Source: an uncultured cyanobacterium (GTDB lineage Bacteria > Cyanobacteriota > Cyanobacteriia > Cyanobacteriales > CAWCAG01). Taken from it: DNA of 64,000 nucleotides. The notes beneath the pieces were generated by a model. It saw only the letters and a list, made by a program, of their open reading frames with translations. It searched no databases and was not told the origin of the DNA. Made by a program: the position numbers and the translations under genes. Shown one piece after another: positions 1 through 15,185 of the stretch. The stretch spans positions 672,001 to 736,000 of the forward strand of contig CAWCAG010000005.1 of assembly GCA_963793425.1 (NCBI GenBank). Direction: 5' to 3'. Numbering within the stretch: position 1 is the stretch's first letter; each line of letters begins with the position of its first letter.

Positions 1-881
1 AAGTAACATCCCTTAATTCCTTGAGGTAAGTTAATATCTCTTAAAGGACTCCAAGGAATTAATTCAGCTCCTAATTGCTCCAAAATATCTAGATTATCTT
101 GATAATAAAAGTTAAAAGCTCTGTCCCAAGCCAGAGCAATTTTGACTTTTTTATCTACCCTAGGAGAGAGTGAGTTGGAAACAGGAAAAGAAGTTTTTTT
201 GGGGGTTAATAAAGGTAGTAATTTATCCCAATTAAAACACTTAGCTGCTAGGTTCGTTAAGGGGGTAATAATTTTCTTAAACTGTGGTAATTCCCCCGTT
301 GGTACTAGCCCTAAATGTCTGTCTGGTATAGCGATGTCATCTTGACGACGGAGGATACCCAAAATAGGTAAATTGAGAGATTCTAAGGCTTCTTGAAGTA
401 ATTCTAAATGGCGATCGCTACCAACTTTATTTAAAATAACACCAGCCAGCTTAACTTTGGCATCAAAGCTACTATAACCGTGGGCGATCGCAGCTACAGA
501 ACCAGAGAGGCGGCTACAATCAATTACTAATACCACAGGTAATTCTAATAACCTAGCAATGTGTGCCGTACTAGCAAAGTCGGCTAGAGATTTAAACTTA
601 ACCCCATCAAATAAACCCATCACCCCTTCTACCAAAGCATAATCTTTGTCTTGGCAATGGTAAGCAAAGCACTTGGATACATAAGCTTCAGAAGTTAGTA
701 AGGGATCGAGATTGCGACAAGGAAGCCCCGTAACCCGACTATGGAACATGGGGTCAATATAATCTGGCCCTACTTTGAAAGATTGTACCTTATTACTTTT
801 TTGAGCCAAAAACGCTAGTAAAGCGAGGGTAATAGTTGTTTTCCCTACTCCACTACGTTCCCCTGCAATAATTAAAGCCAC
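1..881 (-). CDS. cobB: Cobyrinate a,c-diamide synthase (CobB/CbiA); 3' end runs off the window
   Basis: Absent from the ORF track. Manual translation from GTG at 881 gives MALIIAGERSGVGKTTITLALL...FKVGPDYIDPMFH...RNLD...VEGVMGLFDG, the P-loop and GPDYID signatures of CobB/CbiA. Confidence 0.93.
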   Translation of the reverse strand, partial: MALIIAGERSGVGKTTITLALLAFLAQKSNKVQSFKVGPDYIDPMFHSRVTGLPCRNLDPLLTSEAYVSKCFAYHCQDKDYALVEGVMGLFDGVKFKSLADFASTAHIARLLELPVVLVIDCSRLSGSVAAIAHGYSSFDAKVKLAGVILNKVGSDRHLELLQEALESLNLPILGILRRQDDIAIPDRHLGLVPTGELPQFKKIITPLTNLAAKCFNWDKLLPLLTPKKTSFPVSNSLSPRVDKKVKIALAWDRAFNFYYQDNLDILEQLGAELIPWSPLRDINLPQGIKGCY

Positions 882-1251
882 TACTTATAAAATTAATTGT
901 AGACTCTTTATTATACTAACTTTTACAAATTAAGCTCTCATAAAAATGACTTCAAGTAGTTAACATATATGTCAAAAAATAGACATTCTTAATAGTTTTT
1001 GTGCTATAATATTCCCTAATATTCACTTACCTACGAATGTAGGGAATTGCTAAAATAATCACCAAATATAATGAGGAGGCATATTAACAAAAAATATTAT
1101 TTAAAAACCAAAAATTTTATTTTCAAAAGTTATAGCTATTTTTTTAAACAACTTTATATTGCAATTTCTGTATAATTATATTTTGAATATAACTCTTTTT
1201 GATTATTAACTATATCTTTAGTAAAAAACAATAACGTTTATTATTTATAAA

Positions 1252-1389
1252 ATGGAGATTTTAAATAAGTTAAAAGAGCAGGGAACTATCAAGATAAACA
1301 ATTTGCCAGCCAAGCTAAAAAGCGAGTTTCCCGGAGAATTTACTGATATGACTCTTAATGAAATTAGAAAATTTGAGGAGGAGGTTTAA
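1252..1389 (+). CDS. Small 45-aa ORF, possible truncated toxin-like protein
   Basis: ATG1252..TAA1389 reads MEILNKLKEQGTIKINNLPAKLKSEFPGEFTDMTLNEIRKFEEEV. It ends 4 bp before the HEAT-repeat frame. Confidence 0.4.
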   Translation: MEILNKLKEQGTIKINNLPAKLKSEFPGEFTDMTLNEIRKFEEEV

Positions 1390-1393
1390 GTTC

Positions 1394-1873
1394 GTGAAAA
1401 TTTTTCTCACCGAAGCAATTAAACAAGCTAACACTGAACAATTACGGGCTATTATCTTCGCTTTAAGTAATCAAGCAAACTAAGATACAAAAATAATACA
1501 ACTCTTATCTCAATATCTTCGAGATAAACGCCCAATAATTGTTGCTGAGGCTATAGATGGCTTAACCAAACAAAATGAGACAACAGCTATTTCAGAAGTC
1601 TCAGCTTTATTGAATTCTCAGTCTCCTTACATTAGAAATAGCGTTCTTCGTTACCTCAGTAAACTGTATCCAGAACAGGCATTTCCTTTACTAAAAGAAG
1701 CATTGCAAGATCCAGATTATCTTGTTCGAGAAAATGCGGTAGATGAACTAGGAGAATTAGATAAGCCAGAAGCGATCGCTTATCTTGTTCCTCTAACCAA
1801 AGATCCTCACCCTGATGTACGCCAAGCAGTAGAGACGGCAATAGATATGCTATCTTGCATTTCGGTTGTTTGA
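1394..1873 (+). pseudogene. HEAT-repeat protein interrupted by an in-frame stop
   Basis: The frame of ORF 1610..1873 extends upstream to GTG1394 with HEAT-like sequence (LRAIIFAL, LRDKRPIIVAEAIDGL) and a single TAA at 1481-1483. Confidence 0.7.
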
Positions 1874-2110
1874 TAACTAGTTCTGTTAACACTGCTTTTC
1901 AGCATTGATCGTCTTGCGATCGCAGAAATTTATCTCCAAAAAAAACAACCGCGAGACAGAAATTCACGGTTGAGATGGATGTGAAGGAGTAATATGATAC
2001 TTCTTATCATAGGGGTAGAAAAGCTCAACCTAATCTCGGTTACAGTTTTTGCAACAGAAAATATTTTTCTTAAACTTACAGAGTAAAACCCGGAGTTAAG
2101 GAATTGGTAC

Positions 2111-3169
2111 ATGGGCAATGAGACACAATTAAAAACCCGACAACAGGATGTACGCAGTTGTGGCATTAATCCTAATCATTGGTATGTTGTAGCCTCTGCT
2201 AAGGAAGTGCAAGAAAAGCCTTTGGGGGTAACTCTTTGGCAACAAGCTATAGTTCTTTATCGCGATGAAACAGGGGTTGTTAGGGGGCTAGAAGATCGTT
2301 GTCCTCATCGCCAAGTTAAACTAAGTCACGGTCAGGTTAAGGGGGAAAACCTTGAATGTGCTTACCATGGGTGGCAATTTGACTCTGGGGGTAACTGTGC
2401 AGAAGTTCCTTATTTAGGGACGCAACAAAAGTTACCCAGTTGTAAAATTCGTTCCTACCCCGTCCAAGAATTACATGGCTTTATTTGGTTATTTTTAGGG
2501 GAAAATGATCCAGAATCGGTCACTCCTTTAGGGCTACCGGAATGGCAAAATTTAAACTACATCGCCACAGTTTCAGTAATAGATTGCCAAGCCCATTTCT
2601 CTTACTTAATCGAGAATCTGATGGATATGTATCATGGGCATTTACACCATGATCTCCAAGCTTGGGCAAGTGCAGCTTTACAAAGCTTAGAAGCGAATGA
2701 TCAGCGGGTTGATGCCCATTATCAGGCACAAAGTTATTATCGTATTGATAAAATTTGGTCAATTTCTCAGCTTTTCTTTCCTGCCCTACGTCGCCTTCAC
2801 CTTGAACCTTTAGATGTCAGTTATGTTTATCCCCATTGGCAATCAAGTTTAGGGCAAGATTTCAAAATTTGCTGCCTATTTTGTCCTGTTAGTCCCACCC
2901 AAACCCGTGCTTATTTAGTTCATTTCACTTCCCTAAATGCCTTTTGGCGTTTACAGAAACTACCGATTTGGTTTCGCCGTTTCATCAAAGAAAGTCTTTT
3001 CGGGGCAGCACAAAAACTTCTTGATGGTTTGGTGAAACAAGATGTCAAGATGATTGAAGAGGAACAACAAGCCTATAGCCAAAATCCTTACCAACGTAGC
3101 TATGAACTCAATTCTGCTGTAATTAAGGTGCAAAAGTTAATTCGCCAACAGGATAACAGTGAACAGTAA
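2111..3169 (+). CDS. Rieske non-heme iron oxygenase, alpha subunit
   Basis: Rieske ligands CPH...CAYHGW; mononuclear Fe motif ENLMDMYHGHLH. Confidence 0.9.
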   Translation: MGNETQLKTRQQDVRSCGINPNHWYVVASAKEVQEKPLGVTLWQQAIVLYRDETGVVRGLEDRCPHRQVKLSHGQVKGENLECAYHGWQFDSGGNCAEVPYLGTQQKLPSCKIRSYPVQELHGFIWLFLGENDPESVTPLGLPEWQNLNYIATVSVIDCQAHFSYLIENLMDMYHGHLHHDLQAWASAALQSLEANDQRVDAHYQAQSYYRIDKIWSISQLFFPALRRLHLEPLDVSYVYPHWQSSLGQDFKICCLFCPVSPTQTRAYLVHFTSLNAFWRLQKLPIWFRRFIKESLFGAAQKLLDGLVKQDVKMIEEEQQAYSQNPYQRSYELNSAVIKVQKLIRQQDNSEQ

Positions 3170-3255
3170 ACAGTTATCAGTTATCAGTAAACAGTGGATG
3201 ACAAGTACAATTATTGGTTAAGTAGTTAACTAATAATTGGTAACTGATAACTACT
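3155..3255. repeat. Short tandem heptamer repeats (STRR-like)
   Basis: aacagtg/aacagta/aacagtt/atcagtt/atcagta array, with an inverted taactga/taact counterpart near 3240. Confidence 0.6.
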
Positions 3256-3266
3256 GCAAGCTAATA

Positions 3267-3689
3267 TTACACCCCTGCTGCCTGCTCCCCACTCCCTACT
3301 TCTTTCCCCAAAGATTGCGGATCTAACTCCTCTAATTCTGGTTCTGTTTGCTGTAAATGTTCTTCTAATATCTTGAGGTTGCGGACGTTTGATTTGTAGA
3401 AAGCATCAAAGATATCCCCAATTAAAGGAACTGTACCTGCTACGGCTTCTAAGGTGATATTGAAAAGCATTTGTCTAAAGTCTTTACCCGATAAATTGAA
3501 GCGAGTGGCTAAGTAAATGATATAAGCGGAAAAAGCAGTACTAACCACATCTCCTGCCCCAGGAATTAAGCCAATAATCGGGTCTAAGCCAATGCGAAAT
3601 TTAGTTCCGGGGAGGCGAAAAGCAGTATCCATTAAGCGAGAGAGTTTGCGAATGCGGTTGAGGTTAGCAAGGCGTTGGGCTGAGTTCAT
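3267..3689 (-). CDS. DUF4112 family membrane protein
   Basis: LMDTAFRLPGTKFRIGLDPIIGLIPGAGD and VPLIGDIFD signatures. Confidence 0.88.
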   Translation of the reverse strand: MNSAQRLANLNRIRKLSRLMDTAFRLPGTKFRIGLDPIIGLIPGAGDVVSTAFSAYIIYLATRFNLSGKDFRQMLFNITLEAVAGTVPLIGDIFDAFYKSNVRNLKILEEHLQQTEPELEELDPQSLGKEVGSGEQAAGV

Positions 3690-3780: not shown

Positions 3781-4053
3781 CTATGGCCCAGAAAAAACCG
3801 CTGATTCTATATCACCGCGACTCAGGGAATATTTGAAAGAACGGGTAACATTGTGTTCCGCTTTATCAGTTTGAAAGTAATGGACAGTTAATTCCTCAAC
3901 CTCTAGACATAATTCAGCTTGCCAACTAGGTCGTTTTACTTCCCAGCAATGTAAATTTTCTCGGTTTTGTTTGCAGCCTAAGTTAGCTAGCCATTGCTCA
4001 ATTTCTGGTAAAGGATGGTTATAAAGGGGGGTGTCAGAAGGTAAGGTAGGCAT
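3781..4053 (-). CDS. DUF3143 family protein
   Basis: TPLYNHPLPEIEQWL...SLSRGDIESAVFSGP. Confidence 0.85.
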   Translation of the reverse strand: MPTLPSDTPLYNHPLPEIEQWLANLGCKQNRENLHCWEVKRPSWQAELCLEVEELTVHYFQTDKAEHNVTRSFKYSLSRGDIESAVFSGP

Positions 4054-4616
4054 TAACTTAAAAATAATACTTTTAATACAGTCTGGAAATTGGTAATCGC
4101 GAAAAAGTGGATTTTAGTGAAGTGGGATACTTGAAGTGCTGTATCTCCCCTGGTTAAACCGATAAATATAGCAATCATTAAACAGCCAATAAAGGTCAAA
4201 CCTAAGATAAATAAAGCAAATAGTTCTCCAGAGGAAAGAGGACGGTCTGTCGGGTCAAGATAAGCGGAATTAGACCACTTTCTAGGAGATGATTCCCCCC
4301 TTTCTGATTCTAAAGGTGGTTGAATTACATGGTAACGGGAATAACCAATTTTATGATCGTAGAGCGATCGCAACTCTGGATTGCTTAAGGTAGCATAGGC
4401 TTCATTGAGTTGCTGAAATTTAATTGTGGCTTCTGGTATGGGTAAGTTAGTGGTATCAGGATGGTAGCACTTACTTAATTCTCGATAAGAGCGGCGAACT
4501 TCCACAACGGAGGCTGAAGGATGAAGCCCTAAAAGATCATAGTGACTATGGGCCAGCTTAATATGGGCTGGTAAGGAGCGCGAGGTTGATTTTTCTGTTA
4601 CTCTCTCCTGGTTCAC
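4053..4616 (-). CDS. J-domain co-chaperone with C-terminal TM helix
   Basis: HYDLLG...HPD...LNEAY J-domain plus a hydrophobic C-terminal segment. Confidence 0.88.
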   Translation of the reverse strand: MNQERVTEKSTSRSLPAHIKLAHSHYDLLGLHPSASVVEVRRSYRELSKCYHPDTTNLPIPEATIKFQQLNEAYATLSNPELRSLYDHKIGYSRYHVIQPPLESERGESSPRKWSNSAYLDPTDRPLSSGELFALFILGLTFIGCLMIAIFIGLTRGDTALQVSHFTKIHFFAITNFQTVLKVLFLS

Positions 4617-4703
4617 TTGCTTCGATGTTTAATTATTGATGTATGTTATTTTAACTGAATTCTCAATTGAGATTAGCTAAATTTTCCCTAGAGGGGCTTA
4701 GTT

Positions 4704-5114
4704 ATGAAACCTCAAAACATTTCTCCCCTTGCTGAGACTGACCCCAAACTTGCTAAGCAAGTACAAAGATTGCACCGCCTTACAGTTTATTTTAGATGGA
4801 TTATTGTCGTTATTTGCTGGTTAAGTCTGGGTATTTTCGGTATTTGGGGACTACGCCACGAAATTGAACTGTGGAGAGAATATTTTACTTGGGTTGCGGT
4901 GCGCTACGGTTTGTTTTACAACCCCCTAGCTACCCTATGTGTGGCCTTTTGTTGTGGTCTGACCACAGCAGTTTTAGTTTGGCAAAGTCGTAATATTTTG
5001 CTTGGTCTTCCCCCAAGGGAAAGGCAACATTTAGAAAGAGGAGTATTAAAAATCCGCGCTGTTGGGCCGAGTCATCCCCTTTGGAAATTTGTGGTGAGAG
5101 AAACAAAAAAGTAA
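4704..5114 (+). CDS. Conserved cyanobacterial membrane protein, function unknown
   Basis: 136-aa ORF with two hydrophobic segments and a GPSHPLW C-terminus. Confidence 0.75.
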   Translation: MKPQNISPLAETDPKLAKQVQRLHRLTVYFRWIIVVICWLSLGIFGIWGLRHEIELWREYFTWVAVRYGLFYNPLATLCVAFCCGLTTAVLVWQSRNILLGLPPRERQHLERGVLKIRAVGPSHPLWKFVVRETKK

Positions 5115-5136
5115 TTAATTAGCAATTAGCAATAAT

Positions 5137-6096
5137 CTAAACTTCATCGGAAACTTGCGTTTCTGGAATGGCAATATTTTTAATCCCTTTGAGATTCCTC
5201 CACCACGCTAACAAGCTACTAGCAACAAAAATACTGGAATAAGCGCCCAAAATAAAACCAATTATTAAAGCTAGGGCAAAATATTTTAAAGTTTCTCCCC
5301 CAAACAGAAAGATTGCTACTAGGGGGAGTAGGGTCGTTAATGTGGTGTTGATGGAACGTCCCAAGGTTTGATTAACCGCAAGATCAACGATTTCATTAAT
5401 TGATTCATTGGGCATTTTGCTACTGGTTTCGCGGACACGATCATAAATAACTACAGTGTCATTGACAGAAAAACCAATGATAGTAAGTAGGGCTACTAGG
5501 AACAAACTGTCTACTTCAACATTAGCTACTAAACCTAAGACGGCAAAAACACCCGTGGTAACTAAGACATCGTGGAATAGGGCTAAAATAGCGAAAATAG
5601 CATAGTCGAATTTGAAGCGAAAGCTGAGATAAACTATGATACCGAAAAAGGAAACAATCAGAGCAAGTAAACCCGCTACGAATAGTTCTTTCCCAACGGT
5701 GGGGCCAACGGTATCTATTTGAATGCCGTTAGGGTCAAATTTACCAATTGCTTTGCTTAAATCCTTTTCTAAGTCGCTGCGTTGGTCTACACTCAGGTTT
5801 TCTTTGATTCGTATAGCGACGGTATGCTCGTCAATAACCTGAACACCACTTCCCCCTAGTCCTTTTGCTGTGAGAACTTCCCTAACTTCACCAGGTTCGA
5901 TTGGTTGTTCACAATTTTGGGGTTCAGAACAATCTAAACTTAATTGTAGACGAGTTCCCCCTACAAAGTCTAAACCAGGGCGTAAGGGGGCATTTAACTG
6001 GCTAAAGGAAACAACCATCGCCAGCAAACTACCGACCATAGCAACAGCAGAAATGCTCCACCACAAACGTTGCCGTTTAATAACACTAAATTTCAT
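5137..6096 (-). CDS. secF: Protein translocase subunit SecF
   Basis: [29 protein letters not shown] motifs; downstream of secD. Confidence 0.97.
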
Positions 6097-6120
6097 CTAT
6101 TACCTACTACCCATTACCTA

Positions 6121-7524
6121 TCACTTAGTTGCTACATTTAAGTTTGGACAAAATAGTTCTGGTTTTTGACGAACTTTTGGCACACTGAGGACTATTAACA
6201 TTAACAGAGTACGACTACAGGTTAAAGCAGTAAACATACTCACAACAACACCAATTGCTAGGGTTAAAGCAAAACCTTTAACTAAGCCAGAACCTAACCA
6301 AAATAGGGCAGCACAGGCGATTAAAGTTGTGACATTACTATCTAAAATACTCGAAAACGCGCGGTAAAAACCCGATTCTACTCCTCGATAGAGACTTTTA
6401 CCTGCCCTGAGTTCCTCCCTGGTACGTTCAAAGATAAGTACGTTAGCATCCACTGCCATACCAATGCTGAGGATAAATCCGGCGATTCCAGGTAGGGTTA
6501 AGGTGACTCCAACTAAGGTGAAGCAAGCTAGGGTCAAAATGGTGTAAATGATTAAGGAAATATCAGCGATTATTCCTGGCAGACGATAATAAACTGCCAT
6601 GAAAATTAGTACTAATACTAAACCAGCGATCGCTGCATAAACACTACGCCTGATACTATCTTGCCCCAAGGTAGCCCCAACGGTGCGATTTTCCACTACT
6701 TCTACGGGGAAAGGTAAGGAACCACCACGAAGTTGAATTTCTAAGTCACGAGCTTCTTCGATGGTAAAGTTACCGGTAATATCTGCGCCGCCCCCATCAA
6801 TACCTTTTTCAGCATATTGTGGCCCTACGGTAGGGGCGCTAATTAAAACCCCATCAAGGAAAATACCAATACTGCGCCCTGTACCCGCTAAATTTTTAGT
6901 TAATTGGGCGAAATCTTCCCCTCCTTGTTTATCAAAAGCAATGGAGACTTGCCAACCTAAACCTGATGGTGATTGAGTTGCTAAGGCATTAGTTAAGTTT
7001 TTGCCTTCTACTTTTGGGGAGTCAAAAAGCTCATTTATGGCTTCTCTGGTTTGAGTGAGAGATTCCTGCTTTTCAGCAATTTCTTCTTCTTGGCCATCCT
7101 GTTTTTGTAGTGTTTCTATTTCTGCTTCGAGTTGTTGTTGGAGAGCAAATTCTACCCGCAATTCTTGTTCTGTTCCTGCTAGTTGTTCGCGAAACTCCAA
7201 TTGCGCTGTCCCTTGAAGCCTTCTTTCTGCTTGAGTAGGATCACTAACCCCTGGTAGTTGGACAAGAATTTTATTTCCCCCGGCTGTTTGTACTACTGCT
7301 TCAGATACCCCACTAGCATTAACCCGATTTTGCATAACGCGCTTAACGGCTTCTAGGTCTTCTTCTGAGATTTCTTTGATATCTTCAGTAGGTTTGACCT
7401 GAATAGTTAATTGCGCCCCTCCTCGCAAGTCTAAGCCTAGATTGAGGGGTAATTGTACTAAAAGAACAATTGCGCCAATTACTAGAACAATGATGAGGGC
7501 GATTAGGGAACTTTGTTTTTGCAT
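6121..7524 (-). CDS. secD: Protein translocase subunit SecD
   Basis: LGLDLRGG and [13 protein letters not shown] motifs. Confidence 0.97.
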
Positions 7525-7653
7525 AGCGGCAGTCTGTCAGTTTTTAGTTGACGGGTAAAGGGAAGTAATAAGTAGTAACTAATTAAGTAAAGAATATACT
7601 TTCTTTGTGGTATGCGAGATTGAATTTGTGGTTTAAGGGAGAAGGATAGAAAG

Positions 7654-7676
7654 CGAGGCGCTACAATAACGCCTCG
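7654..7676 (-). terminator. Hairpin downstream of pdhB
   Basis: cgaggcg-N9-cgcctcg stem just past the pdhB stop. Confidence 0.5.
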
Positions 7677-7689
7677 TACTATAAATCAA

Positions 7690-8673
7690 TTAAACCTGTA
7701 AAGCGACCATTTTCTTTACAGCTTCAACAATTTGCTCTGGTTGAATAATGGTTAGCCTTTCTAATGTTCCATTGTAGGGGGTAGGAATGTCTTGGGAAGA
7801 CAGTCGTACAACAGGAGCATCTAATTCATCGAAAAGTTGTTCGTTGATCAATGCAGTTAATTCTGCCCCAATTCCCCCGGTTTTCATACATTCTTCGACA
7901 ATGATGACGCGGTGGGTTTTCTTGATCGAAGCGCCGATAGTTTCTAGATCAAAAGGCTTAAGGGAGATTAAGTCAATAATCTCTGGATCTAGTCCTTCTT
8001 TTTCCAGAGGCTTCAAAGCTTGCAGACAGTGATGGCGCATTCTAGAGTAGGTGAGAATAGTTACATCCTTACCTTCTCTAACCATTTCTGCTTTATCAAT
8101 GGGAACCAAATATTCATGTTCTGGCAAGTCTTCTTTTAAGTTGTAAAGAAGCACGTGTTCAAAAAACAATACTGGATTATTATCCCGAATGGCTGCTTTA
8201 AGAAGACCTTTGGCATTATAAGGGGTTGAACAAGCCACAATTTTTAATCCCGGAACCGCATGAAAGTAAGCTTCTAAGCGTTGGGAATGTTCTGCCCCTA
8301 ACTGGCGACCTACTCCCCCAGGGCCTCTAATAACCATCGGAATGGTAAAATTTCCTCCGGAGGTATAACGTAACATACCAGCATTATTAGAAATTTGGTT
8401 GAAGGCCAGGAGCAAAAAGCCCATGTTCATACCTTCAATTATCGGTCGCAAGCCTGTCATAGCAGCTCCAACAGCCATACCAGCAAAGCTATTTTCGGCG
8501 ATGGGAGTATCTAATACTCTCAATTCACCGTACTTCTCGTATAAGCCCTTGGTCACTTTGTAAGAACCGCCATAATGCCCTACGTCTTCTCCGAGGACAA
8601 ATACAGTGTTGTCACGAGCCATTTCTTCATCAGTTGCTTCGCGCAACGCATTATAGAAAAGAGTTTCTGCCAT
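7690..8673 (-). CDS. pdhB: Pyruvate dehydrogenase E1 beta subunit
   Basis: [26 protein letters not shown] motifs. ATG at 8673 ([10 protein letters not shown]) preferred over the track start at 8685. Confidence 0.96.
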
Positions 8674-9031
8674 CCATCGCCTCACCTGTTTGCAGCAAAC
8701 ACAATCCTATCATTTCATTTGGTGCTTGGTGTTGGGGAATTTAGCTAGCGCTTCGGGAATTTTCTTGACTAAAATCCAGTTCGTGATTCTAAAACTAGAA
8801 CAATTTTTCTCCTAATTGTTTACATAAAAAATTAAAATTTTGTGGTAAGAAGGCTTTGTATATTGGTGATTTTACGACATATATAAAAGAGCGTAAATCT
8901 ACTCTAATAAACTTTGAAAAGATATGCTGTTGGAGATAAGAGAATTATTTAATTACAGTAAATTTCTATTTAATATTAATAGGTTAATACCAGTAACTTC
9001 CTGATTGAAATTTTAATAAACATCTTGTTGA

Positions 9032-9244
9032 TTACTGTAATTCTTCTTCAGTGAAAGAAGGAGAGTTATGAATCAACCACTCCTTTAAAGCTTCTTCTAA
9101 AGCTTCACTTTGACTAGTTTGCTTAGAAGTACAAGCAATTTTAAAACGAATGGCTAAATTTTTAGGAACATAGCCGCTTACTTGAGCATAATTGGGGTCG
9201 TCACGTTTAGTTACCACAGTTATCTTTATACATATTATTGACAA
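9032..9244 (-). CDS. Ribbon-helix-helix (CopG-like) DNA-binding protein
   Basis: YAQVSGYVPKNLAIRFKIAC...SQSEALEEALKEWL fits a beta-alpha-alpha RHH pattern. True start may be the GTG near 9217. Confidence 0.75.
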   Translation of the reverse strand: MSIICIKITVVTKRDDPNYAQVSGYVPKNLAIRFKIACTSKQTSQSEALEEALKEWLIHNSPSFTEEELQ

Positions 9245-9390
9245 TGCGATCGCGAACTAATGAATTCACAATCGCATGAATTAACCAACTAATGTTACAG
9301 TAATTGGTCATAGACATCATCTAACCATATCACCAACCCAGTTATTAACTAGTAACTCAATTAGTTGGTACTTTGAAAACTGAAGGCAAA

Positions 9391-9428
9391 AAGCCAGCAG
9401 ACAAGTTTACACGGCTTCCTGCTGGCTT
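9391..9428 (+). promoter_or_regulatory. Leader hairpin preceded by a boxA-like motif
   Basis: Perfect 10-bp stem aagccagcag/ctgctggctt with an 18-nt loop, 30 nt before ATG9459; actttgaaaactgaa at 9370-9384. Confidence 0.5.
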
Positions 9429-9458
9429 CGGGCTTCTTATCAAAAGGAAACCTTTACT

Positions 9459-10373
9459 ATGGTAAAACCAGTTGGTACAACTTCCAATAGCTATGGAAAA
9501 AGTCAGCAAGTTGAAGATGATTTTGGGCTGAAGAAACTGCTGTCTCATTTACGCAGCCACACTGATACAGAATCAATTAATGTTGAAGAACAAGAGCTTA
9601 AAAGCTTGGCAAAGATGATCATTGAAGGCTTAGCTAAAAGTCTTGATAGTAAGCAAGTTGCTAGTTATCTTAATGCCTTGCGCCATGGCCATAGCAAACC
9701 CTGCCAAGATAGCCTTAATTTAGAAATTCCTGCCTCTACAACCAAAGCTATAGATAACTTTCCTGCTAATACAAAACCTCGCTATCAAGAAGGGGATCGC
9801 GTCAGATGGCAATCTCCAGGTAATAGCTCTGATTGGGGGGTGATAATTGGTCACTTTTATGCCTATGCTAAACACAATTATCAGTGGGGAATTTGTTACC
9901 TTGTGTGGTTAGATGTTAATTCTCCTAGCGCTGATTGGATAGTTGCAGATACAGCTTGGGAAGAAGATTTGGTGCTGATTGTTTCTCAAGATTTAAAAGA
10001 TTCTTTGCCTAATTTAATCAATAAACGCCAATCTCTTCATGCACCCCCAGGAAGTTATAAATCTGACAATCCTCATCAACCAACTACGCGCCAACTATCC
10101 CAACGAGAGCAAGAATTAGTGCAATTGTATAGCGAATGTCAACTAGCCATGACACCCAAACATTTTTATCATAAATGGCAAGTTAGCCACGATATCTTAG
10201 CGATGGTTTGCTCTCGTTCTACTTCTACCGTTCGCCACTGGTTTTCTAAGGGGAAAAGCTATCGTCGCCCCAACAAAGATGATTTACGCAATCTGGCTTT
10301 GATGGATTTTGTATTAGAGCATTTTGAGAGTATTCCTGCTGAGGTGTTTAGTTTCCTTTGCGCCCCTAAGTAG
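9459..10373 (+). CDS. Hypothetical protein with SH3-like barrel and C-terminal HTH
   Basis: PRYQEGDRVRW...WGVIIG...YLVWLD...AWEEDL (SH3/KOW-like); C-terminal WQVSHDILAMVCSRSTSTVRHWFS (HTH-like). Confidence 0.75.
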   Translation: MVKPVGTTSNSYGKSQQVEDDFGLKKLLSHLRSHTDTESINVEEQELKSLAKMIIEGLAKSLDSKQVASYLNALRHGHSKPCQDSLNLEIPASTTKAIDNFPANTKPRYQEGDRVRWQSPGNSSDWGVIIGHFYAYAKHNYQWGICYLVWLDVNSPSADWIVADTAWEEDLVLIVSQDLKDSLPNLINKRQSLHAPPGSYKSDNPHQPTTRQLSQREQELVQLYSECQLAMTPKHFYHKWQVSHDILAMVCSRSTSTVRHWFSKGKSYRRPNKDDLRNLALMDFVLEHFESIPAEVFSFLCAPK

Positions 10374-10398
10374 CAAAATGCCTATACCATGAAGAGGT

Positions 10399-10442
10399 AA
10401 AAAAAGACATGTCAGATGGGCATGTCTTTTTTCTTTTTTTTC
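10399..10442 (+). terminator. Intrinsic terminator-like hairpin
   Basis: aaaaaagacatgtc-agatg-ggcatgtctttttt followed by a long T run. Confidence 0.7.
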
Positions 10443-10481
10443 TATTAAGGTGGCTAAAGTTCAATTCATTTACTAATTAAA

Positions 10482-10703
10482 ATGACCTATTTTGAACAGC
10501 TTTACCCTTGGTGCATTATCAAACCCGTAGCCGATGTGCAGTGGCGAGTACTCGCTCGTTTTCGTCGTCGTAATGATGCAGAAGCACACCTACAAGTGTT
10601 GCGGCGATTAATTCCTGATGTTAGCTACCAGATTATTTTCGATGTGAAGCTAGAGAAAGAAGAAAATCACCCAGAGCAACCCAAAATTCTGGAAAAAGTT
10701 TAA
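10482..10703 (+). CDS. Small conserved-type cyanobacterial protein
   Basis: MTYFEQLYPWCII...ARFRRRNDAEAHLQVLRRLIP...YQIIFD; compact alpha/beta pattern. Confidence 0.75.
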   Translation: MTYFEQLYPWCIIKPVADVQWRVLARFRRRNDAEAHLQVLRRLIPDVSYQIIFDVKLEKEENHPEQPKILEKV

Positions 10704-11006
10704 ATAATAACTACACCATCATCGTTTGCTCACTTTTGAATTATAGCCTCTGCCTTTGCTTGAATATCCCTTGTTATGAACTGGTACGTGTGTTTCCCAA
10801 AAAATAAGGCGAGGCTAATTTTTTTTCTTTACATTTGGTTATGATAAATTTCTGCTTTCTGACTTTCAGGGGAACTGGAAGACTAGTAAACAAGCTACAA
10901 GATGTCGCTTTTTTCTGTACATCACTTTCTTATCCCCTACTTCCCAAAATTTCTCTGATCGGGATGCTTTAGAGGCGATAATTGAAGATGTTATTAGTCA
11001 TCAAAA

Positions 11007-12008
11007 GTGATGAAACATCTTAGTTATAAATTTCTTGCTAGCTTTAGTGTTGTTGCCGCTATTTGTGGTGTAACCTTAGCTGCCTCCGCCCAAACACTGC
11101 CAGTTAGTGTTGCGGTTGCCCCTAGAAATGCAGAAGATTTATTTTATCAAGGCATTGAAAAGTATCAACAGGGCAACTATCAAGGGGCTATTGAAGATTT
11201 TAATCAAGTACTTGAGCTTAATCCTAACCACTACCCAACTTACTACAATCGGGGGTATATCCGTTATAGTCTTAGGGATTATCGCGGGGCAATAGAAGAT
11301 TATAATCTGGCTCTAAAAATTAATCCTGACTTTACTGAAGCATATAATAATCGCGGTTTAGCCCGACGCAAATTACGAGATTATCAAGGGGCAATAGAAG
11401 ATTATAACCGCGCTTTACGTCTTAATAGTAATTATGCCCAAGCCTACGTTAATCGAGGCTACGCCCGTTATCTTTCCGGGCAATACCAAGAGGCGATCGC
11501 CGATTTTAATCAGGGTTTAAAAATAGATCCTAATTTCCCTGAAGCGTACAGTAATAGAGGTTTGGCACTACGCCAATTAGGAAAATACTCTGAAGCAATA
11601 GAAGATTATAATCGCGCTTTACAACTTAATAGTAATTATGCTCAAGCCTATGTTAATCGTGGGGTAGCTTACTTTTATTTAAAAAAAGATTCTCAAGCCC
11701 TAGAAGATTATAATCGCGCCTTGAGTATAGATCCTAACAGCGATGAAGCTTACCTCAATCGGGGAGTAGTGCGCCGTCAAAGGGGAGATACCCAAGGTGC
11801 GATCACCGATTATAGTCAAGCAATTAGACTCAACTCTCAGTATACAGAAGCCTATCTGAATAGAGGCATTGCTCGTTATTATTTAGGGGATACTAAAGGT
11901 GCAATTGAAGATACGAAAAAGGCTGCTTCTTTAGCACAACAACAAGGTTATACCAGCGCCTATCAACGGGCGCAAAAACACTTGCAGGTGTTTAGAAATA
12001 GCCAGTAA
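11007..12008 (+). CDS. Exported tetratricopeptide repeat protein
   Basis: Signal peptide plus eight 34-aa TPR units (AYxNRG...AIEDYNRAL). Confidence 0.93.
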   Translation: MMKHLSYKFLASFSVVAAICGVTLAASAQTLPVSVAVAPRNAEDLFYQGIEKYQQGNYQGAIEDFNQVLELNPNHYPTYYNRGYIRYSLRDYRGAIEDYNLALKINPDFTEAYNNRGLARRKLRDYQGAIEDYNRALRLNSNYAQAYVNRGYARYLSGQYQEAIADFNQGLKIDPNFPEAYSNRGLALRQLGKYSEAIEDYNRALQLNSNYAQAYVNRGVAYFYLKKDSQALEDYNRALSIDPNSDEAYLNRGVVRRQRGDTQGAITDYSQAIRLNSQYTEAYLNRGIARYYLGDTKGAIEDTKKAASLAQQQGYTSAYQRAQKHLQVFRNSQ

Positions 12009-12035
12009 TAGTTAATATTAATTAAAGTCTAGCCT

Positions 12036-12785
12036 TCAAACCTTGCCAAAACGCCGGTTACGATTTTGATAAGCTAACAAAGCCTTATGAAATTCTACCC
12101 GATTAAAATCTGGCCACAAGGTTGAAGTTACATAAATCTCCGCATAAGCCATTTGCCATAGCAGGAAATTACTCAAACGCATTTCCCCACTGGTACGAAT
12201 CAACAAATCAGGATGAGAAAGTTGTGCCGTATAGAGGCTTTTCTCAAACACCTCCTCATCAATCTCTTCCACTGTGAGAATACCTTGTTGAACTTGAGAA
12301 GCGATTTCTCGACAAGCTTGGAGAATTTCTTGCCTGCCTCCATAATTAGTCGCCACCGTAAATTGGATACCTTGGTTATTTTTGGTATCTTCCATCGATC
12401 GAAAAATCTCGTCTTGTAGGGAGTCCGGTAGGGCGCTTAAGTTGCCAATAAAACGAATTCTGACATCTTCTGTCATCATCTCTGCCAATTCTCGTCGCAA
12501 CACCCTTTCAAATAGGGTCATTAAGAAATCTACTTCTTCTAAAGGTCGGCCCCAATTTTCCGTAGAAAAAGCGTAGGCAGTTAAGGCAGGAATCCCCCAA
12601 TCTCGACAACAGCGCAGCAAATCTTTTAAAACATCTACACCCCTACGATGACCCATAATTCTTGGTCGCCCCTTACCCTTTGCCCAGCGGCCATTGCCAT
12701 CCATAATTGCTGCCACATGGCGAGGCAAACGATTTTGATCTAAATCTGGGGGTAACTGTTCTAACACACTTGGCTTGGCAGTCAT
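12036..12785 (-). CDS. uppS: Isoprenyl transferase (undecaprenyl diphosphate synthase)
   Basis: [36 protein letters not shown]. Confidence 0.96.
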
Positions 12786-13702
12786 TTCTTCTTTTTGAAG
12801 GTTGATGACGGAAAACGAAGGATACGCTCTAGTAACGCTAGTCCTTGGGAACCTAAAAGGCGACCCAAACGACCTAAACCAGGGGCCACAGCCTCTCGGT
12901 CAACCACAGGAGAGAACCTTGCTTCCAATAGCTCTTTTAGTTTACTGCTAGTCAACGGTCGGTTTAAGTTTCTCTTTTCAGCTAAAGATATAGAACCAGT
13001 TTCTTCTGATACAACTATACATAAACATTTTTCCACCCTTTCGGTAATCCCCATAGCTGCCCGATGGCGAGTACCTAATTGTCGTGAAGCTATACGTTCA
13101 GACAAAGGCAAAATCACCCCAGCCGCAGCAATACGAGAACCACGAACTAATACAGCCCCGTCGTGGAGTAAAGTTGAGGTTTGGAAAATAGTTTGCAATA
13201 ATTCCTTAGAAATTTCCGCATTGATAACAACTCCAGGAACCGAGAAATCTCGTTCGTCAATAGGAGTTCCTGTTTCCATGATAATTAGAGCGCCAGTACG
13301 ATTTTGAGATAATTGTTTAACCGCATCAACAATTTCATTAATGACATTATCAGGATCTGGTAACAAGCGGCGGGTGGGTTTTTGCCATAATTGCTTGATC
13401 TCTCCCCGCCCTAAGCGTTCTAAAAATTGACGAAACTCTGACTGGAAAATAACAGCCATAGCAACAGAAGAACCGACCACGAGTTTTTCTAGCAAAAAAC
13501 TCAACAATTCTAGGTTAAGTCTATTGCTTATAACCGCAGCTAGCATGAGAATAATTAATCCTCTGACCATCCATAGGGTACGACGCTCTCCAATAATTAG
13601 GAGAACGAGATAGGTAAGAGCGAGAACCAATCCAATATCCAGGCTATGAACTAACCAAGATTGAATTTCCCGGAGGTCAGGAAGTGAACCCGACAAAGGC
13701 AT
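12782..13702 (-). CDS. cdaA: Diadenylate cyclase CdaA
   Basis: Three N-terminal TM helices; DAC motifs LHDGA and GTRHRAA; lysA-cdaA-uppS order. Confidence 0.95.
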
Positions 13703-13742
13703 TACTTATACTTAAAGTGAAATAATGCTTGTACTTACTCAA

Positions 13743-15185
13743 TCAGTGGCGATCAAGTAACTTGTTTTGAACAAGTCTTTCTGGCAAACAATCTTGCTTA
13801 ATTAAATCTTGATAGGTTTCCCTTTGAATAATTAAGTTAGCTTCCCCTTTATACACTAAAACAGTAGCTGGGCGGGGTAAGCGATTGTAGTTAGAGGCCA
13901 TACTATAGTTATAAGCTCCAGTAGCCAAAACTGCGAGAATATCCCTCGGTTCTAGTTTCGGAAGAAGTATATCTTTGATGACAATATCCCCTGATTCGCA
14001 ATGCTTTCCGGCAATTGTAACAGTTTCTTGGAAAACTGCCGACATTCGGTTAGCCACAACGGCCCGATAATCTGATTGATAGGTTATAGGACGAGGATTA
14101 TCTGACATACCACCGTCTACAGAAACATAGGTTCTCATGCCTGGTATTTCTTTACGACTGCCGACCCGATAAGCGGTGATGCAAGCTGAACCGATCAGCG
14201 ATCGCCCTGGTTCAACAATCAGCTTGGGTAGGGGGATTTGTTTACTTTGGCAAGCTTTTTCCATGGCTTGGCAGGCAGCTTTGACCCATTCATCAATACT
14301 AGGGGGATCATCTGTTTCTGTGTAGCGAATACCTAAACCACCACCGATATTTAATTCTTTGATGGCTAAGCCATATTCTTCTGCTTTCTCTAGCCATTCT
14401 ACTAAAACCCCAGCTAAATCTTGATGGGGTTGGCTCTCAAAAATTTGAGAACCGATATGGGCATGAAGACCGACACAGTTTAGAGTAGGCTGTTCTTTGA
14501 GGAAGCTAAAAACTTTAGGTAGCTGATGAGGATCGAAGCCAAATTTACTATCAAGATGACCTGTACGGATATATTCGTGAGTATGGCACTCAATGCCAGG
14601 AGTGATACGAACCATAACCCGGAGGGGTTTGCTCAATATTCCGGAGAGAGAATATTCTTTCGTCATTTCAGCCAACATCTCTAACTCAAGCCAGTTATCA
14701 ATAATCACGCTACAGCGATTATCAATGGCGAGTTGTAATTCTGCGGCTGATTTATTGTTACCGTGGAAATAAATTTTTTCTGGACTAACCTCAGCTTGTA
14801 AAGCCGTATAAAGTTCTCCCCCAGAAACTACATCTAAGCCTAGTCCTTCGCTATCGACGATGGCACAAATTGCTAAACAACTCCAAGCTTTGGAAGCATA
14901 AATAACTAAAGATTCTCCAGGGTAATATTTAGCCAGGGCATCTCGATATTGGCGACAAGAGGCTCTTAAGGTTTCTTCATCCAAAATATAAAGGGGGGAG
15001 CGAAATTGTTCTACTAAGGTAGTTAAATCGCAACCACCAATTTCTAAACAATCTTTTTCATTAACTTTCGCAGTTAAAGGTAAAAGGCTCTGGTTAGGAG
15101 AAATAGGCTTGTCTACATCCCTATCTCTATGGTGAGGTAGATACTGATGTCCTGTTGATTCTAATTGGGGTTGGGTGGATAACAT
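13743..15185 (-). CDS. lysA: Diaminopimelate decarboxylase
   Basis: YASKA (PLP lysine), HIGSQ, EPGRS, CESGD. Confidence 0.96.
   Translation of the reverse strand: MLSTQPQLESTGHQYLPHHRDRDVDKPISPNQSLLPLTAKVNEKDCLEIGGCDLTTLVEQFRSPLYILDEETLRASCRQYRDALAKYYPGESLVIYASKAWSCLAICAIVDSEGLGLDVVSGGELYTALQAEVSPEKIYFHGNNKSAAELQLAIDNRCSVIIDNWLELEMLAEMTKEYSLSGILSKPLRVMVRITPGIECHTHEYIRTGHLDSKFGFDPHQLPKVFSFLKEQPTLNCVGLHAHIGSQIFESQPHQDLAGVLVEWLEKAEEYGLAIKELNIGGGLGIRYTETDDPPSIDEWVKAACQAMEKACQSKQIPLPKLIVEPGRSLIGSACITAYRVGSRKEIPGMRTYVSVDGGMSDNPRPITYQSDYRAVVANRMSAVFQETVTIAGKHCESGDIVIKDILLPKLEPRDILAVLATGAYNYSMASNYNRLPRPATVLVYKGEANLIIQRETYQDLIKQDCLPERLVQNKLLDRH

Follow-up and report, generated by a model that had tools for sequence, protein, structure and literature searches.

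What kind of unit is formed by three uncharacterised genes that lie between pdhB and a tetratricopeptide repeat (TPR) gene in the genome of an uncultured cyanobacterium? The window, that is, the whole stretch of 64,000 nucleotides that was analysed (assembly GCA_963793425.1, contig CAWCAG010000005.1, positions 672,001 to 736,000), carries at this place a ribbon-helix-helix (RHH) gene and, divergent from it, the genes of a 304-aa protein and of a 73-aa protein (p73). An earlier note, made from the sequence alone, had considered a self-regulated genetic switch, a toxin-antitoxin (TA)-like unit or the remnant of a plasmid or phage-satellite module. The reading that we favour, with a probability of roughly 45%, is a TA-like, autoregulated controller/effector cassette of the addiction or abortive-defence type. 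The locus in the window represents a fused copy, on the chromosome, of a mobile cassette whose known occurrence is so far limited to cyanobacteria; this cassette is carried by Tn7-like and integrative elements and adjoins cas1-cas2 genes and CRISPR arrays. In agreement with the earlier note, no characterised system was matched in the libraries or literature searched; the literature search found no published description of the cassette, which is not proof that there is none.

Whole-genome searches revealed that the 304-aa protein corresponds to two adjacent open reading frames (ORFs) elsewhere, namely residues ~1–180 (N) and ~209–304 (C). N and C are thus usually separate genes, and the 304-aa gene is their fusion. 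An alignment of C was scanned against one genome per prokaryote species (GTDB representatives) and yielded 287 relatives. The 80 loci kept for analysis (loci of all sets are numbered L below) were the best of the 287 by similarity to the C domain of the window and are hence skewed to its subfamily; all named records among them were cyanobacterial. N stood directly 5' of C in 67 of the 80 loci (22 fused, 45 split), and in the split loci the N stop overlapped the C start by 4 nt in 39 of 44 cases. Either fused or translationally coupled, N and C therefore act as one unit. A divergent small RHH gene was present upstream in 26 of the 71 loci with enough upstream sequence (Pfam families RHH_5, RHH_10/ParG, Antitox_RHH, and RHH_1, each locus being called from one Pfam-scanned representative per BLAST cluster), and another 8 of the 71 had a small divergent ORF without a Pfam match. 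The p73 gene followed C in 35 of the 80 loci, at a median gap of 182 nt (range 78–866 nt). On these counts the RHH/N-C/p73 architecture is a recurrent cassette. Where the upstream partner of C was not N, it was a RelE-like ORF of 84–89 aa (orf84-89) or one of the small ORFs c55, c28, c64, and c45.

The earlier note had set co-occurrence of the homologues as a test beforehand, and its expectation was borne out by the locus counts and by a survey of the order. Of 301 genomes (E ≤1e-5), 66 carried N, 82 carried C, and 81 carried p73; 55 had both N and C, 11 had N but not C, 27 had C but not N, and 208 had neither of the two (odds ratios calculated from these counts ignore relatedness), and N, C, and p73 were found together in 42 genomes. 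The cassette is multi-copy and patchy across genomes. Databases held 494 matches to N and 44 fused N-C proteins. Beyond the 56B_RHH match of the RHH protein in the window, the three families have no Pfam or NCBIfam model of their own, and N, C, and p73 are labelled 'hypothetical'. In line with the earlier note, which saw no integrase, transposase, or enzyme motif, Pfam, NCBIfam, PADLOC, and PHROGs gave no such family for the 304-aa and 73-aa proteins, and PADLOC-DB returned no family at E ≤1 for any of the three proteins.

An AlphaFold2 model of the 304-aa protein, built with 37 fused homologues, comprised a confident small beta-barrel (residues 104–181), a disordered linker, and a helical C domain; the helices of residues 1–103 were predicted with low confidence (pLDDT <50). 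The linker is the point at which N and C are separate genes elsewhere. The barrel contains 6 Trp in 80 residues, has an isoelectric point (pI) of 4.8, and shares the invariant residues W117, G127, G131, and W143 and the motif DTAWEEDLE with fused and split homologues. Its best VIA match was R67 DHFR (Z 6.8 over 60 residues, 2.8 Å), followed by chromo, PWWP, Tudor, KOW, and CAP-Gly barrels at Z 5–6.2 with many ties, so that the model is classed as an SH3-like small barrel by a generic match. Folded alone, the C domain gave a 6-helix bundle of the Xre type. Every best VIA row for it was an Xre-type helix-turn-helix (HTH) protein (Z 4–6.4, 50–68 residues aligned), including Aca10 (6.4), Aca1 (5.9), MqsA (5.5), C.EcoT38IS (5.2), HigA2 (5.0), and P22 c2 (4.5); Aca7, Aca2, and Aca11 (within an Aca range of Z 4.7–6.4), the HTH parts of AcrIF24 and AcrIIA15, and the restriction-modification (R-M) controllers C.Kpn2I, C.AhdI, and C.Esp1396I were also among the matches. 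The model thus classes C as an Xre/Cro-type HTH domain, and the Trp-rich SH3-like barrel and HTH proposed in the earlier note are both supported. Foldseek matched neither the barrel nor the C-domain model to the PDB at E 1e-3 or better, and the C domain had no sequence match to solved structures at E <0.1. Members of the C family showed weak Pfam matches to HTH_23 (16 of 20) and Sigma70_r4_2 (12 of 20). A homology of C to the N-terminal HTH of TnsB, following a Mu-repressor-like idea, was rejected at an hhalign probability of 16%.

Within 6 kb of the cassette, 20 of the 80 loci had Tn7 genes and 5 had cas genes; tns genes, cas genes, and arrays were all lacking over this distance in 51. In 14 loci, an RHH_5 gene (−) beside tniQ was divergent from N, C, and p73 (+), which were followed by convergent tniQ (~168 aa), tnsC, and tnsB. 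Pairwise comparison of the Tn7-like loci revealed a shared DNA block that starts just past the RHH stop and extends past the tnsB start. Within this block, cassette and tns genes differed in their identity to L073, at 93% and 76%, respectively, in one element and at 79% and 93% in another. As this discordance shows, the cassette is a separable, recombining module of ~1.6–1.8 kb. NCBIfam naming of the tns genes and their neighbours yielded nothing useful. Other loci were situated in integrase/helicase/DnaB elements or, in defence islands, beside R-M, GmrSD, CHAT, and STAND genes, and many fused forms stood among housekeeping genes with local synteny (FKBP, sigma-70, LytR).

Several Tn7-like loci carried further features. 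A degraded tniQ copy was found directly 3' of the RHH gene in L064 (4219-5303), L060, L061, L069, L072, and L073, the fragments covering residues 39–168 in L064, 26–123 in L061, and 122–168 in the other four. In L064, a MerR (CvkR-like) gene follows the degraded copy. As the cassette lies between a complete and a decayed tniQ, nested or recombined elements related to Tn7 and to CRISPR-associated transposons (CASTs), with no visible cas12k, are suggested. L064 also carries two large co-directional ORFs beside the Tn7-like element (11-3613), one of 606 aa with a weak AAA_5 match and one of 592 aa with Cys-rich, zinc-ribbon-like ends and without a family match; this pair is possibly a two-gene, defence-like cargo.

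The association with CRISPR adaptation genes was already visible in the first 20 loci fetched from relatives, 9 of which carried the pair directly after cas1-cas2, with a CRISPR array next where visible. The slot between cas2 and the array was occupied in L020, L021, L029, L031, L036, and L090. Among the nine are three contigs of plasmid size from the window's own genome, of which two are identical to each other. The cas1 gene of the own-genome contig encodes a fusion of reverse transcriptase and Cas1 (RT-Cas1), and the other loci have plain Cas1-Cas2 with RT-Cas1 and type III markers nearby. NCBIfam recognised Cas1, RT-Cas1, and Cas2 of these loci and offered no Cas or accessory model for N, C, p73, or orf84-89. 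The identical module of L020 (G000:C2:1-14000) and L021 (G000:C8:17000-31198) comprises RT-Cas1 (669 aa), Cas2, orf87 (RelE-like), N, C, and a CRISPR array; additional arrays and a gene for an MntA-like antitoxin are found in its vicinity. The identity could reflect a true duplication or an assembly repeat. A third own-genome copy, in L022 (G000:C6:40000-58000, ~8200-13800), lies behind a cas1 broken into ORFs of 155 and 103 aa. A TnpB-family gene adjoins it; 2 kb away, the opposite strand carries an intact RT-Cas1 gene that has an array of its own.

In a quick C-domain tree of limited resolution (98 rows × 98 columns, two of the 80 loci dropped because of stop codons and one duplicate omitted), contexts clustered. 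The 14 Tn7-linked copies formed a clade (SH-aLRT 95), and all 12 cas-linked copies fell inside one 17-row group (support 87), a subfamily that occurs in at least nine host families. The copy of the window was placed on a long branch with no supported sister.

The cas-linked loci contain the conserved orf84-89 between cas2 and N or C. In the Atlas, its language-model neighbours are clusters of RelE/ParE toxins (score 0.94). When 1.84 billion representatives were searched with a profile, 35 hits were obtained, 31 of which were scanned against Pfam (two partial and two long multi-domain hits were left out): 15 of the 31 matched ParE, YafQ, HigB, or Gp49 toxin families, three of them above the curated cutoff, and one matched an unrelated family. 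Judged from these distant relatives, orf84-89 is probably a RelE/ParE-like toxin, and C would therefore occupy the antitoxin place of HigA in toxin-first modules. The RelE-like gene, N, and C are all present in L020, its duplicate L021, and L028, so that N is not simply a replacement toxin. The idea that orf84-89 is a short barrel of the N type was rejected, as the hidden Markov model of the barrel was negative (E >0.5).

Upstream of the 304-aa gene, the 70-aa RHH protein matched Pfam 56B_RHH above its cutoff (E 2.4e-8, 34.2 bits versus 27.2), as expected from the earlier note, with weaker matches to ParG and RHH_1. It is presumed to repress the control region that it shares with the 304-aa gene. 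This region is 93–95% identical to the orthologous region of a same-genus genome, with ~90 nt perfectly conserved; the neighbouring spacer between pdhB and the RHH gene is 69% identical. The sequence ACCAACTAAT at 9284-9293 recurs as an inverted copy at 9360-9369, and AACTAATG forms a direct repeat at 9255 and 9287; both repeats are candidate operators. A hairpin (9391-9400/9419-9428) just 5' of the 304-aa start has conserved stems and a variable loop in the same comparison. A HIP1 palindrome, GCGATCGC, was noted within an inverted repeat at the RHH start (9247-9254). It was rejected as an operator, since the same-genus orthologue reads GAGATCAC and the palindrome is therefore not conserved.

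The coordinates of the three ORFs, the divergent orientation of the RHH gene, and the position between pdhB and the TPR gene were confirmed (Table 1). The three ORFs are genuine and conserved, and their dN/dS values against the same-genus genome show purifying selection on each; the neighbouring housekeeping genes gave 0.02–0.06. With purifying selection and a conserved control region, the locus is maintained, and the remnant considered in the earlier note is not supported.

Table 1. Features of the cassette and its neighbours in the window (dN/dS after Nei-Gojobori, locus versus same-genus genome)
Feature	Position	Strand	dN/dS	Remarks
RHH gene, divergent from 304-aa gene	9032-9244	-	0.21	70 aa, TTG start; Pfam 56B_RHH; same-genus homologue 90% identical
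Divergent control region, 214 bp	9245-9458	.		Candidate operator repeats and hairpin
304-aa gene, whole	9459-10373	+	0.22	N-C fusion
N part, helical N-terminal region (aa 1-103)	9459-9767	+	0.29 (aa 1-100)	Kept in 37 fused homologues and split N proteins
N part, Trp-rich acidic SH3-like beta-barrel (aa 104-181)	9768-10001	+	0.22	Model pLDDT ~85
Variable disordered linker (aa 182-208)	10002-10082	+	0.42	pLDDT <50; length differs widely among fused forms
C part, Xre/Cro-type HTH (aa 209-304) and stop codon	10083-10373	+	0.10	Model pLDDT 90 when folded alone
Intrinsic terminator after N-C gene	10400-10442	+		14-bp stem and T run; folding z-score -3.18
p73 gene, facultative third cassette gene	10482-10703	+	0.03	73 aa; same-genus homologue 99% identical
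Possible terminator after p73	10744-10826	+		Long-range stem 10744-10816 and T8; z 0.27, not better than shuffles
pdhB, transketolase-type E1-beta gene (left neighbour)	7690-8685			Pfam Transket_pyr and Transketolase_C
TPR gene (right neighbour)	11007-12008			

For the TA-like cassette we propose the following mode of action. An RHH dimer would bind the repeats in the control region and repress the divergent promoters. The C domain would bind DNA and serve as autoregulator and neutraliser of the HigA/MqsA/Aca/C-protein type; in the cas-linked subfamily it stands directly after a probable RelE/ParE-like toxin gene, toxin first as in higBA. Effector activity may reside in the variable upstream partner, usually the N barrel protein and sometimes the RelE/ParE-like or another small gene. 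Alternatively, N could be the partner-binding half of a split antitoxin with p73 as the effector. p73 would be made from its own cistron behind the terminator and modulate the system. One feature of type II TA modules, a tightly linked, co-transcribed pair with a DNA-binding antitoxin, was found, in view of the 4-nt overlap, the HTH nature of C, and the fusion in the window. Another, a recognised toxin family beside the antitoxin, was absent from the window and seen weakly in the cas-linked relatives only.

Several further observations weigh against a TA-like cassette. Searches of Pfam, NCBIfam, PADLOC, and PHROGs linked no part of the cassette in the window to a family of toxins, antitoxins, or defence proteins. 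The N barrel is similar to binding modules (Tudor, chromo, KOW, R67) rather than to the folds of known toxins, with neither MazF nor CcdB among its 50 best VIA rows, and the fold matches in general are middling, a VIA Z <8 denoting a shared fold only. The RelE/ParE assignment of orf84-89 relies on weak, transitive matches, since direct searches of Pfam, NCBIfam, and a PDB-profile library gave nothing, and the coexistence of RelE-like gene, N, and C in the three loci named above fits poorly. A stable fusion (22 of 80 loci, 44 database proteins) is unusual for a toxin and its antitoxin, and type II TA modules do not typically have an additional, divergent repressor. p73 is missing from 45 of the 80 loci and, split from C by a terminator and by the variable gap, is loosely linked. 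Finally, the co-occurrence counts treat the genomes as independent of phylogeny.

A tentative and rather unlikely alternative is a purely transcriptional switch without a toxic part, in which RHH and N-C oppose each other at the shared control region. N-C would then be an Xre HTH joined to a barrel for the binding of a ligand, a partner, or RNA polymerase. Together, RHH and N-C would set how p73 and, where the cassette is on a mobile element, the adjacent genes are expressed, the copy in the window being a domesticated regulator. Such a switch would resemble CI/Cro pairs, R-M C-proteins, or the CvkR/Arc repressors of type V-K CASTs. Two DNA-binding proteins flank the conserved, repeat-containing region of 214 bp, the barrel is of the Tudor/KOW binding type, the fused forms reside among housekeeping genes with local synteny, and the chromosomal copy is under purifying selection. 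Small RHH (RHH_5, 'Arc_2') and MerR repressors are divergent from cas12k in cyanobacterial V-K CASTs (PMC9938897), and an RHH_5 gene is divergent from N-C directly beside tniQ in the 14 Tn7-like loci. The switch does not explain, however, why the partner upstream of C is swapped, in places for a probable RelE/ParE-like toxin, nor does it explain the multi-copy, patchy, and mobilome-biased spread or the recombination as a self-contained unit. Moreover, no regulated target beyond the cassette is evident in the window.

Another explanation, which we consider improbable, is an accessory DNA-binding factor of integrating machines. N-C, with or without p73, would help Cas1-Cas2 to find the leader-repeat junction. 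In Tn7-like elements with a small TniQ but without cas12k, it would be a protein-based factor for target selection or assembly, and the solitary chromosomal copy would act in trans. The cassette fills a fixed slot directly after cas2 and before the array in the six loci listed above and a fixed slot directly after tniQ in the 14-locus clade, where it lies inside the block shared with tnsB-tnsC-tniQ, and the subfamilies of C form clades that are specific to their contexts. The annotated loci, in which no cas12k profile search was run, showed no cas12k-like ORF adjoining tniQ. For other cyanobacterial Tn7-like elements, a dependence on native host factors is suggested by the authors of PMC11837452. 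Against such a role, the window and the 51 loci mentioned above lack any tns or cas gene or array nearby, and the control by RHH, the swapping of partners, and the adjacent RelE-like gene rather suggest a module that is selfish or regulatory. Cyanobacterial CRISPR loci are known to be flanked by TA modules, and no tRNA attachment site was found near 16 Tn7-like loci.

A specific form of this explanation is a long shot. It holds that N-C, with p73, is a protein-based DNA-recognition accessory that has taken the slot of cas12k together with its RHH repressor in a V-K-like Tn7 lineage (tnsB-tnsC-small tniQ), where it would select or license targets, that a sister subfamily at the leader of type III/RT-Cas1-linked adaptation modules would guide Cas1-Cas2, and that the solitary chromosomal copies would be trans-acting or domesticated. 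The array-targeting, cargo-less Tn7-like family with TnsAB-TnsC-TnsD of Chacon Machado and Peters (2025; PMC11837452) is a different one and does not account for the link to cas genes and arrays.

A variable small gene beside a conserved HTH gene on mobile elements is the pattern used for finding anti-CRISPR (Acr) genes, and the design of the cassette fits it. C would then be an autorepressor of the anti-CRISPR-associated (Aca) type, and the upstream gene (N or others) or p73 would inhibit a defence system, for example, CRISPR-Cas of type III or I-D, which is common in these cyanobacteria; a fusion of effector and HTH would parallel AcrIIA1/AcrIIA15-type proteins. The Aca10, Aca1, Aca7, Aca2, and Aca11 proteins and the HTH of AcrIF24/AcrIIA15 are among the fold neighbours of C, and the cassette resides on transposons and integrative elements and adjoins CRISPR-Cas loci. 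In known Acr-Aca fusions, the HTH is N-terminal. Such an anti-defence operon is distinctly improbable, as the Aca matches are at the generic Xre-fold level (Z ≤6.4) and tied with antitoxins and C-proteins, one subfamily is stably inherited between cas2 and the array in at least nine host families, which is an odd site for an anti-CRISPR, the chromosomal copies are under purifying selection, and the HTH of the fused N-C is C-terminal.

The third gene of the cassette deserves separate mention. p73 has a basic core (RFRRR...AEAHLQ) and an acidic tail; the 'small basic protein' of the earlier note applies to the conserved core (residues 1–56, pI 9.5) and less to the whole protein (pI 7.9). Likewise, of the hairpins that were said to follow the 304-aa and 73-aa genes, the former is a strong terminator with its stem and T run at 10400-10432, and the latter is no better than shuffled sequence. 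We found 121 homologues of p73, unannotated except for a few UniRef 'SPOR domain' labels. This label is a source name only, and the p73 of the window did not match Pfam SPOR at E ≤1. The Atlas cluster of p73 has 874 members. The family reached at least 19 matches in each of 12 of the 301 genomes, all of them large (6.9–10.6 Mb), which for an unannotated protein of ~65 aa is a very large expansion. Stand-alone p73 pairs with, or is fused to, other small proteins. One such partner is a family of ~95–116 aa with the motif YKLTYQPAPISAW (L137, L120, L121, L125, L126), and in L137 (G016:C41, 4021-4521, −) p73 is fused to it in a 166-aa protein. In the vicinity of several stand-alone p73 genes there is also a small gene for an Xre-type HTH. 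Where p73 is absent behind C, a 274-aa pentapeptide-repeat protein (HetL/Alr5209-like, NCBIfam) is often encoded ~200 nt after C (L050, L056, L067, L076, L093, L098, and L116). The next gene in L076 is a TnsD-type gene of 640 aa, and a 641-aa TnsD-type gene lies behind a 210-aa ORF without a family match in L035.

Within the window, no tns or cas gene was found near the cassette and no CRISPR array by a k-mer finder, and an Rfam scan of 8600-11100 gave no match at E ≤1. Synteny with the same-genus genome spans 4001-10798 and ends ~95 nt past p73, with repeat-level similarity to the TPR gene only in 10798-11700; the right flank of the cassette is therefore a rearrangement point. A search for an empty site revealed that a sister genus is out of synteny directly after pdhB, and no clean cassette boundary or target duplication was definable. 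Consequently, the site of the cassette in the window is a variable junction.

Taken as a whole, the analysis lends support to two of the proposals of the earlier note, the TA-like unit and the mobile-element module. The interpretation given in that note held in part and lacked the fusion and coupling of N and C, the ties to Tn7-like elements and to cas1-cas2/CRISPR loci, and the expansion of p73 with other partners. A recurrent cassette of 'hypothetical' families adjoins both a CAST-related Tn7-like module and a CRISPR adaptation module that includes RT-Cas1. Should it be TA-like, it would pair effector and antitoxin in a new way, with fused and split forms both occurring naturally, and may stabilise cyanobacterial defence plasmids and transposons. 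Should it be a regulator or an integration aid, it would bear on why cyanobacterial Tn7-like elements resist reconstitution in E. coli and on target choice by Cas12k-less relatives of CASTs. Either way, a common cyanobacterial unit receives a name and boundaries as a small testable system.

Compared with known systems, the cassette resembles the C-proteins of R-M systems in that these are small Xre-type autoregulators that time a mobile two-component system and match the fold of C; it differs in that it controls no R-M genes and has the barrel domain, the RHH gene, and p73 in addition. With Acr-Aca operons it shares Aca10 and Aca1 as top fold neighbours of C and a conserved HTH beside variable small genes on mobile elements. 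The likeness is at the level of the fold only, one cassette subfamily lies within cas loci, and the position of the HTH in the fused forms is reversed. Among the small proteins that Shah et al. (2018; PMC6546367) list as associated with cyanobacterial adaptation modules, the part of that list available contains no family combining SH3 and HTH.

A parallel in arrangement is provided by CvkR, Arc_1, and Arc_2 of cyanobacterial V-K CASTs (Ziemann et al. 2023; PMC9938897). These small repressors, of the RHH (RHH_5) or HTH type, are encoded divergently from the gene under their control. In the tnsB-tnsC-small tniQ elements, an RHH_5 gene is likewise located beside tniQ and divergent from N-C-p73; this RHH_5 cluster is likened to Arc_2 by family name and position. 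Whereas the CAST repressors control cas12k, the presumed controlled operon here is N-C(-p73), with no cas12k seen (no profile search). Furthermore, the RHH protein of the window belongs to the 56B_RHH family and is not encoded inside a transposon.

HigBA and MqsRA are toxin-first type II TA modules with an Xre-HTH antitoxin. The cassette differs from them in that the partner in the window is a helical and SH3-like barrel protein that matches no toxin family and forms a single protein with the HTH, and in that a divergent RHH gene and a third small gene are added. It resembles them in the tight coupling of a variable upstream partner to a downstream HTH protein of ~100 aa, in the match of the C fold to HigA2 and MqsA (Z 5.0–5.5), in the probable RelE/ParE-superfamily toxin upstream in the cas-linked loci, and in its multi-copy, mobilome-biased spread.

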